In this document: one piece after another, positions 1 to 789 of the stretch | Layout of the letters: each line of letters starts with the position of its first letter | Numbering within the stretch: the stretch's first letter is position 1 | Assembly (NCBI RefSeq): GCF_003334765.1 | Contig: NZ_QOWT01000099.1 | Length of the DNA stretch: 789 bases | Source of the DNA: Escherichia coli | Lineage (GTDB): Bacteria; Pseudomonadota; Gammaproteobacteria; Enterobacterales; Enterobacteriaceae | Direction: 5' to 3' (one strand) | Position numbers and translations under genes: made by a program | The notes under the pieces: generated by a model | The model's database searches: none | The model's input: only the letters and a program-made list of their open reading frames with translations | What the model was told of the DNA's origin: nothing

Positions 1-789
1 TGACAACGGCGACCTGGTGCGCATCAGCGGCCCGCGACAGACGCGGGAATACGGCTACAGCGCCACGGGCAGGCTGGAGAGTGTGCGCACCCTCGCACCA
101 GACCTGGACATCCGCATCCCGTATGCCACGGACCCGGCGGGCAACCGGCTGCCGGACCCGGAGCTGCACCCGGACAGTACACTCACAGTGTGGCCGGATA
201 ACCGCATCGCGGAGGATGCGCACTATGTCTACCGCCACGATGAATACGGCAGGCTGACGGAGAAGACGGACCGCATCCCGGCGGGTGTGATACGGACGGA
301 CGACGAGCGGACCCACCACTACCACTACGACAGCCAGCACCGCCTGGTGTTCTACACGCGGATACAGCATGGCGAGCCACTGGTCGAGAGCCGCTACCTC
401 TACGACCCGCTGGGACGGCGAATGGCAAAACGGGTCTGGCGGCGGGAGCGTGACCTGACGGGGTGGATGTCGCTGTCGCGTAAACCGGAGGTGACGTGGT
501 ATGGCTGGGACGGAGACAGGCTGACGACGGTGCAGACTGACACCACACGTATCCAGACGGTATACGAGCCGGGAAGCTTCACGCCGCTCATCCGGGTCGA
601 GACAGAGAACGGCGAGCGGGAAAAAGCGCAGCGGCGCAGCCTGGCAGAGACGCTCCAGCAGGAAGGGAGTGAGAACGGCCACGGCGTGGTGTTCCCGGCT
701 GAACTGGTGCGGCTGCTGGACAGGCTGGAGGAAGAAATCCGGGCAGACCGCGTGAGCAGTGAAAGCCGGGCGTGGCTTGCGCAGTGCGG
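1..789 (+). CDS. rhs: Rhs-family YD-repeat protein, internal fragment of the conserved core (partial at both ends; reading frame begins at nt 2, 262 complete codons to nt 787, no start or stop in the window)
   Basis: Seen in sequence: a single + strand frame (phase starting at nt 2) is open across the entire window. The translation contains five YD-repeat motifs: YGYSATGRL (50..76), [11 protein letters not shown] (224..256), YHYDSQHRL (320..346), YLYDPLGRR (395..421) and WYGWDGDRL (497..523). Codon usage is GC3-rich (ctg, ccg, cgg, acg, ggc dominate). Established knowledge: the translated peptide matches, from memory, the conserved core shared by E. coli RhsA/B/C/D; no alignment was possible here. 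I cannot tell from core sequence alone which paralog this is, so the symbol is given at family level only. The track omits this frame presumably because it has no in-window start or stop. Confidence 0.93.

Follow-up and report, generated by a model that had tools for sequence, protein, structure and literature searches.

The 789-nucleotide stretch of Escherichia coli DNA analyzed here (the window) very probably encodes the last stretch of the β-cocoon wall of E. coli RhsD, or of the identical rhsE copy, just upstream of the C-terminal plug. Rhs proteins encapsulate and deliver a C-terminal toxin, and YD repeats were first defined in E. coli Rhs cores. The segment is already known, as part of a textbook gene whose structure class is well described. 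The original prediction had described five degenerate YD-repeat motifs with uneven spacing and an unusually basic, tryptophan-rich spacer, typical of the C-terminal third of an Rhs core where the β-shell closes.

Identity of the window

The plus-strand frame that starts at nucleotide 2 is the sole frame open across all 789 bases. The peptide it encodes (262 residues) occurs unchanged in RhsD of E. coli K-12 (WP_000014739.1; N-terminus MSGKPAARQGD), where it makes up residues 872-1133 of 1426. At the DNA level the window is 100% identical to rhsD (789/789 nt), with intact genes in many strains, and the rhsE pseudogene of K-12 MG1655 matches it at 100% as well. Matches are found in 3821 of 5426 complete E. 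coli genomes, with a median of 3 places per genome and 14048 places in total. The NCBIfam model RHS_core (NF041261) matches the window over profile positions 875-1136 of 1261 with 583.2 bits (E=1.2e-174), to be read against a whole-protein cut-off of 2000 bits that is out of reach for a fragment such as the window; full RhsD scores 2787.7 bits. The window covers 69-90% of the core, which ends near residue 1236, and its assignment to the C-terminal third of an Rhs core is therefore upheld.

Because the window is identical to both genes, the locus of origin (rhsD or rhsE) is not readable from 789 bases. The DNA might come from the rhsE pseudogene or from another truncated or orphan core copy, and would then be a non-functional remnant, at most a substrate for recombination. 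We regard this as possible but on the doubtful side. It is favored by the 100% match in MG1655 which, among the matches listed, lies in an RHS coding sequence annotated as "incomplete; missing N-terminus" and adjoining ydcD (that is, rhsE), and by the several core copies carried per genome. However, the same bases occur unchanged in the intact rhsD of many strains, and the frame is open throughout with a GC3 of 82%. If the window were the N-terminally truncated rhsE, no shell would be made from this copy, but the sequence and its structural meaning are unchanged whichever copy it is.

The G+C content is 65.7% in the window, 63.8% in the rhsD core, 36.3% in the rhsD C-terminal tip and 30.6% in the downstream gene ybbC (locus L002, positions 3389-8077). 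Such a discontinuity between core and tip is a familiar feature of Rhs genes. On the minus strand, antisense to the Rhs frame, there is a 121-codon open reading frame at 183-548 together with several shorter ones. The plus-strand frame from nucleotide 2 is favored over these because the GC3 pattern fits it, and the minus-strand frames are most likely by-products of a G+C-rich coding strand.

Motifs and their conservation

Among 1.84 billion representative proteins searched, 146,483 relatives reached E≤0.001. An alignment of RhsD 61-1260 with 44 of these relatives (33-79% identity) is the source of all column counts given here, and it was also used for an AlphaFold2 model of RhsD 61-1260 (mean pLDDT 86.8, pTM 0.80), in which the model residue equals the window residue + 811. 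The features of the window are as follows, all on the plus strand.

2..787, plus strand: open frame without a stop in the window; its translation is an exact RhsD substring
2..28, plus strand: end of a preceding YD repeat that is truncated at the window start, with turn (S)DNGD and return strand LVRIS
50..76, plus strand: motif 1, YGYSATGRL, hairpin with the 5-residue turn SATGR (repeat HMM, alignment, model)
122..151, plus strand: sixth YD-type motif, with turn DPAGN (alignment, model)
149..211, plus strand: long irregular connector loop of 21 residues with a conserved W-x-D-N-R-I (model, alignment)
224..256, plus strand: motif 2, hairpin with turn DEYGR (D 41/41 and G 41/41 in the alignment; model)
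272..307, plus strand: connector loop of 12 residues, length varying across homologues (model, alignment)
320..346, plus strand: motif 3, YHYDSQHRL, hairpin with turn DSQHR (repeat HMM, alignment, model)
395..430, plus strand: motif 4, YLYDPLGRR (395-421), extended to the family signature Y-x-Y-D-x-x-G-R-R-x-x-K, with turn DPLGR
419..451, plus strand: first half of the spacer, the 11-residue return β-strand of hairpin 4 (model 951-961, pLDDT 93)
452..487, plus strand: second half of the spacer, a connector loop with a 3-residue strand, lineage-specific insertion (model 962-973, pLDDT 74)
497..523, plus strand: motif 5, WYGWDGDRL, hairpin with a tight 2-residue G-D turn (alignment, model, TIGR01643)
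545..607, plus strand: further hairpin, the last of the wall before the helical insertion (alignment, model)
608..787, plus strand: start (60 residues) of a helical insertion that spans about 78 residues (RhsD 1074-1151), not a YD repeat

When translated from nucleotide 2, the five motif peptides and the spacer peptide (416-484) of the original prediction are in frame and exact where they had been placed, and the start-to-start distances between the five motifs, 58, 32, 25 and 34 codons, match those reported. All five motifs are genuine, but five is an undercount, as there is a sixth at nt 122-151, a cut repeat at 2-28 and an extra hairpin at 545-607. The 58-codon gap is partly an artefact, because the motif at nt 122-151 was overlooked inside it. 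This motif surpasses all others in the window in conservation (D, A and G each 41/41, N 41/42, R 36/41, L 34/41) and aligns to YRYDAAGNRL of Pseudomonas aeruginosa Tse5 and to FAYDAAANLL of P. protegens RhsA. A practical point is that counting motifs by eye overlooks the best-conserved turn, DPAGN.

The cut repeat corresponds to the family consensus RxYxYDxxGQLxxI and to strand 806-810, turn 811-815 and strand 816-820 of the model. In motif 1 the two tyrosines (34/40 and 39/40), the arginine (37/40) and the leucine (40/40) are conserved, while the D position holds D in 28/40 and S in 11/40. The serine of RhsD is a common variant, since S is found in 11 of 40 homologues. Motif 1 aligns to FHYDATGRI of P. 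protegens RhsA (7q97). In motif 3 a histidine replaces the usual glycine, and it is shared by 31/41 homologues (D 40/41, L 40/41). The extended motif 4 (R 42/42, R 41/42, K 33/41) aligns to YRYDALSRRIAK of Tse5, YKYDPFGRRISK of S. bongori Rhs and MRYDVLGRRISK of RhsA.

The description of the motifs as degenerate YD repeats, weakly conserved copies of the wall repeat, is supported, except that motif 5 is strongly conserved (G 42/42, W 41/42, G 39/41, L 38/41). This motif lacks one residue relative to YDxxGRL and has its turn at model residues 982-983. Because it is among the most conserved blocks of the window, it is a family signature and not a decayed copy. The hairpin that follows at 545-607 is also conserved (Y 39/41, P 38/40, F 39/41, P 41/41). 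It consists of strands 993-999 and 1006-1013 of the model joined by the 6-residue turn EPGSFT, carries a conserved T-V-Y-x-P-G-S-F-x-P-L at nt 557-595, and aligns to TVHEPGGFVPLLRLE of Tse5.

Strength of the repeat signal

Standard profiles for single repeats nearly fail in this part of the core. TIGR01643 just passes its cut-off (17.8 against 15.8 bits, E=0.0035) at amino acids 164-188, around motif 5, but Pfam RHS_repeat (PF05593) has no match at E≤0.001 in the window, where its i-E values are 0.025 (cut repeat and motif 1), 0.89 (motif 2) and 7.1 (motif 3). The proposed hmmscan check comes close to failing. Full RhsD reaches 158 bits with TIGR01643, and a scan of RhsD 300-1299 gives 8 Pfam RHS_repeat matches at E≤0.001, all within residues 365-678. 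The evidence from single-repeat HMMs is marginal in the window, and the case rests on whole-core homology and fold. Whole-core models or structure are needed for calling this part of the core, because it is almost invisible to the standard repeat HMMs.

A test HMM was built from 13 clear YD repeats of RhsD, all outside the window (residues 361-761). Scanned with this HMM, the window yields exactly the five claimed sites, with 6.0, 4.1, 3.1, 1.3 and -0.8 bits. Four matches reach at least 1 bit, a threshold at which none of 2000 residue shuffles has more than 2 matches, and three reach at least 3 bits, where none of the 2000 shuffles has more than 1. The summed repeat score of the window is reached by just 1 of the 2000 shuffles. 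The repeat signal in the window is real but weak.

These results bear on the alternative that the window, being rich in Y, D, G, R and L, resembles the repeat at five sites by chance only, which we consider practically impossible. In favor of it are the low single-site scores (-0.8 to 6 bits) and the non-significant Pfam matches. However, the excess over the shuffles at 1 bit or more speaks against chance, and the motifs align column by column with solved Rhs shells and fall on predicted hairpin turns. The shuffles, the conservation in the alignment and the turns of the model together refute this reading. At the DNA level, repeat searches of the window found no tandem arrays, and what they did find were brief chance matches in two copies. 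The repetition is confined to the protein level.

Predicted fold of the wall

The claim that the motifs form β-hairpins of the shell is borne out by the AlphaFold2 model, in which all five lie on strand-turn-strand elements, as a prediction and not as an experiment. DSSP assigns a strand, a 5-residue turn and a strand at SDNGD, SATGR, DPAGN, DEYGR, DSQHR and DPLGR, where DPAGN (model 855-859) is flanked by single bridge residues only. The model as a whole has 44 five-residue turns, of which 37 follow the pattern [DNS]xx[GDNH]x. In the YD hairpins of Tse5, DxxGR makes the turn, and the tyrosine and the residue at the leucine position face the cavity; this leucine is often replaced by arginine, and the residue that follows is solvent-exposed (PMC10684867). 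The turn pattern of the RhsD model agrees with that of solved Tse5, where DxxGR makes the turn.

The wall encoded by the window would be a continuous antiparallel sheet of hairpins. In each YD repeat, aromatic-x-Tyr would end the outgoing strand, D-x-x-G-R would turn, and L/I-x would start the return strand. The window contains eight such turns, i.e., the one cut at the start, the five claimed, DPAGN and EPGSFT, and these alternate with connectors on the opposite edge of the sheet.

The connectors differ strongly in length. From the secondary structure of the model they are, in order, GPRQ (4 residues), PD (2), 21, 12, HG (2), 12 and TDT (3 residues). It is these unequal lengths, from 2 to 21 residues, that give the motifs their irregular spacing. 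The long connectors are prone to insertions and deletions and are modelled with lower confidence (pLDDT 68-75; columns filled in 11-24 of 41 homologues). The loop at 149-211 (model 861-881, pLDDT 71-75) has no regular secondary structure; within its conserved W-x-D-N-R-I at nt 191-208, D-N-R is nearly invariant (N 39/40, R 39/40) and the W before it is found in 30/40. The loop at 272-307 (model 902-913, pLDDT 68) contains no strand, and its columns are filled in 14-24 of 41 homologues.

The basic spacer

The spacer at nt 416-484 is no separate element. It is the return strand of hairpin 4 with the conserved GRRxxK, followed by a loop inserted in the E. coli lineage. The counterparts of GRRxxK in other shells are RRIAK in Tse5, RRISK in S. 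bongori Rhs and RRISK in P. protegens RhsA. Beyond GRRxxK, the homologues have 12 to 93 residues without a common sequence. Just 11-17 of 41 homologues have residues in the columns of RhsD 1021-1027, and the DLTGWM insert is confined to close relatives.

The original prediction had called the spacer unusually basic and W-rich. It is indeed the most basic 23-residue stretch of RhsD, with a net charge of +7, but this charge is within chance and the tryptophans are poorly shared. Shuffling produces stretches that reach +7 in 16% of trials with the window and in 36% of trials with the whole protein. The charge of the spacer is not statistically unusual because shuffles of this arginine-rich protein often reach +7. 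Only the first tryptophan is shared, with 14 of 41 homologues having it; the second is part of an insertion that 14 of 41 homologues possess.

The strand of the spacer would be part of a wall one layer thick, and successive side chains should then point in turn to the lumen and to the outside. By the Tse5 rule, R140, A142, R144, W146, R148 and R150 (window residues) would face the lumen, and M141, K143, V145, R147 and E149 would point outward. This tentative assignment builds on strand alternation and the Tse5 rule, and a β-bulge would shift the register.

A different reading is that nt 416-484 form a specialised patch, either lining the lumen, where it would hold the toxin in its unfolded state, or on the surface, where it would bind a membrane or a partner. 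We consider this unlikely. The patch would draw on the most basic 23-residue stretch of RhsD, on a nearly invariant RR..K, and on the positive net charge that homologues mostly keep in the spacer. A basic strip would also be conspicuous, given that solved Rhs shells otherwise carry negative charge on both their inner and outer surfaces (bioRxiv 10.1101/2024.02.26.582050). Against a patch stand the frequency with which shuffles of the window reach the charge, the variable and unconserved sequence past GRRxxK, and the restriction of the W loop to close relatives. In addition, hairpin geometry explains the conserved part of the spacer, as in Tse5 an arginine often takes the place of the leucine (PMC10684867). 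A return strand followed by a lineage-specific loop is therefore the reading we retain for the spacer.

Downstream of the wall

The last part of the window, from nt 608, encodes the start of the helical insertion. This insertion has five helices in the model (pLDDT 60-87) and is present in 30-39 of 41 homologues. The plug follows just past the window, with PF03527 at RhsD 1155-1190 and TIGR03696 at 1181-1258 (82 bits, cut-off 32.5). The statement that the β-shell closes in the window is therefore approximately right as to position, but the closing plug itself is encoded downstream.

In full RhsD the feature that marks the end of the Rhs-associated core is DPMGL at 1232-1236. The DPMGL motif occurs twice in RhsD, at a distance of 22 residues (ITQDPMGLKGG and QQIDPMGLLQ, RhsD 1232-1259, L002 7083-7168). 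This pair fits the aspartyl-protease signature DPXGX18DPXG given for Rhs proteins (PMC10684867). The AT-rich rhsD tip (putative toxin) and, immediately downstream, ybbC (putative immunity gene) both lie outside the window.

The two lineage-specific decorations of this segment, the tryptophan-containing basic loop (452-487) and the adjacent five-helix insertion (from 608), might together form a surface feature of the enterobacterial Rhs cocoon for contact with a membrane or a partner, by analogy with the helical protrusions of Tse5 that are proposed to bind the membrane. The analogy makes for a speculative proposal, which we hold to be improbable. In a literature search, neither decoration was found described for E. 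coli Rhs proteins.

Comparison with known shells

E. coli RhsD, the rhsE pseudogene and the NF041261 family represent the same family member as the window, with no difference between them. Among solved structures, the best Foldseek match of the model in the PDB is P. aeruginosa Tse5 (8cp6_B, E 9.6e-92, 30% identity, TM 0.80/0.88, where 0.88 is normalised to the target). A profile search of PDB sequences agrees, with 1098 bits for Tse5. The Tse5 shell was solved by cryo-EM at 2.45 Å (PDB 8cp6; PMC10684867).

The order of motifs in Tse5 is the same as in the window: YDAAGNRL, W-x-x-NR, YRFDALGNL, YDGAQRL, YRYDALSRRIAK, FGWDGDR and TVHEPGGFVPL. The differences lie in what is placed between and after them. 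After DPAGNRL, Tse5 has a 38-residue disordered or helical protrusion where RhsD has 10 residues. The loop at 149-211 of RhsD occupies the site of this "Predicted Helical Region 1", which comprises Tse5 residues 873-914 (+47 offset, chain B; PMC10684867). After GRRxxK, the connector of Tse5 is shorter and lacks the DLTGWMSL insert of RhsD. Where RhsD carries its helical insertion (about 78 residues), Tse5 has about 22-32 residues, which belong to its surface "Helical Region 2" (residues 1031-1062; PMC10684867), so that RhsD is two to three times longer there. The toxin of Tse5 also differs from that of RhsD.

All other solved T6SS Rhs shells come next after Tse5 in the Foldseek ranking (E 1e-51 to 1e-73, TM 0.63-0.88, 18-25% identity). 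They are P. protegens RhsA (7q97), S. bongori Rhs (8qjb/c/d), A. mimigardefordensis VgrG-Rhs (8qja), A. baumannii Tse15 (8uxt), V. parahaemolyticus RhsP (8h8a/b) and P. laumondii Rhs1 (7pq5). Their cocoon fold is as in RhsD, while loop lengths differ. RhsA and S. bongori Rhs share the conserved motifs of RhsD in the window segment. RhsA has only about 4 residues at the site of the helical insertion, and S. bongori Rhs has an enlarged loop (1120-1199) that ends where the RhsD loop at 149-211 lies.

The cocoons of TcB-TcC (4o9x, 4igl) and the YD shells of teneurins (6fb3 and others) have the YD-repeat β-shell architecture in common with RhsD, but they are far more distant (TM 0.2-0.5, 10-15% identity) and carry extra domains such as a β-propeller and an FN-plug. 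Tc-toxin structures, which the original prediction had proposed for mapping alongside solved Rhs shells, and teneurin structures were rejected as templates, being far worse matches than the T6SS Rhs shells. The irregular spacing of the motifs in the window marks the sites where the Rhs shells of other lineages bear variable loops or helical decorations.
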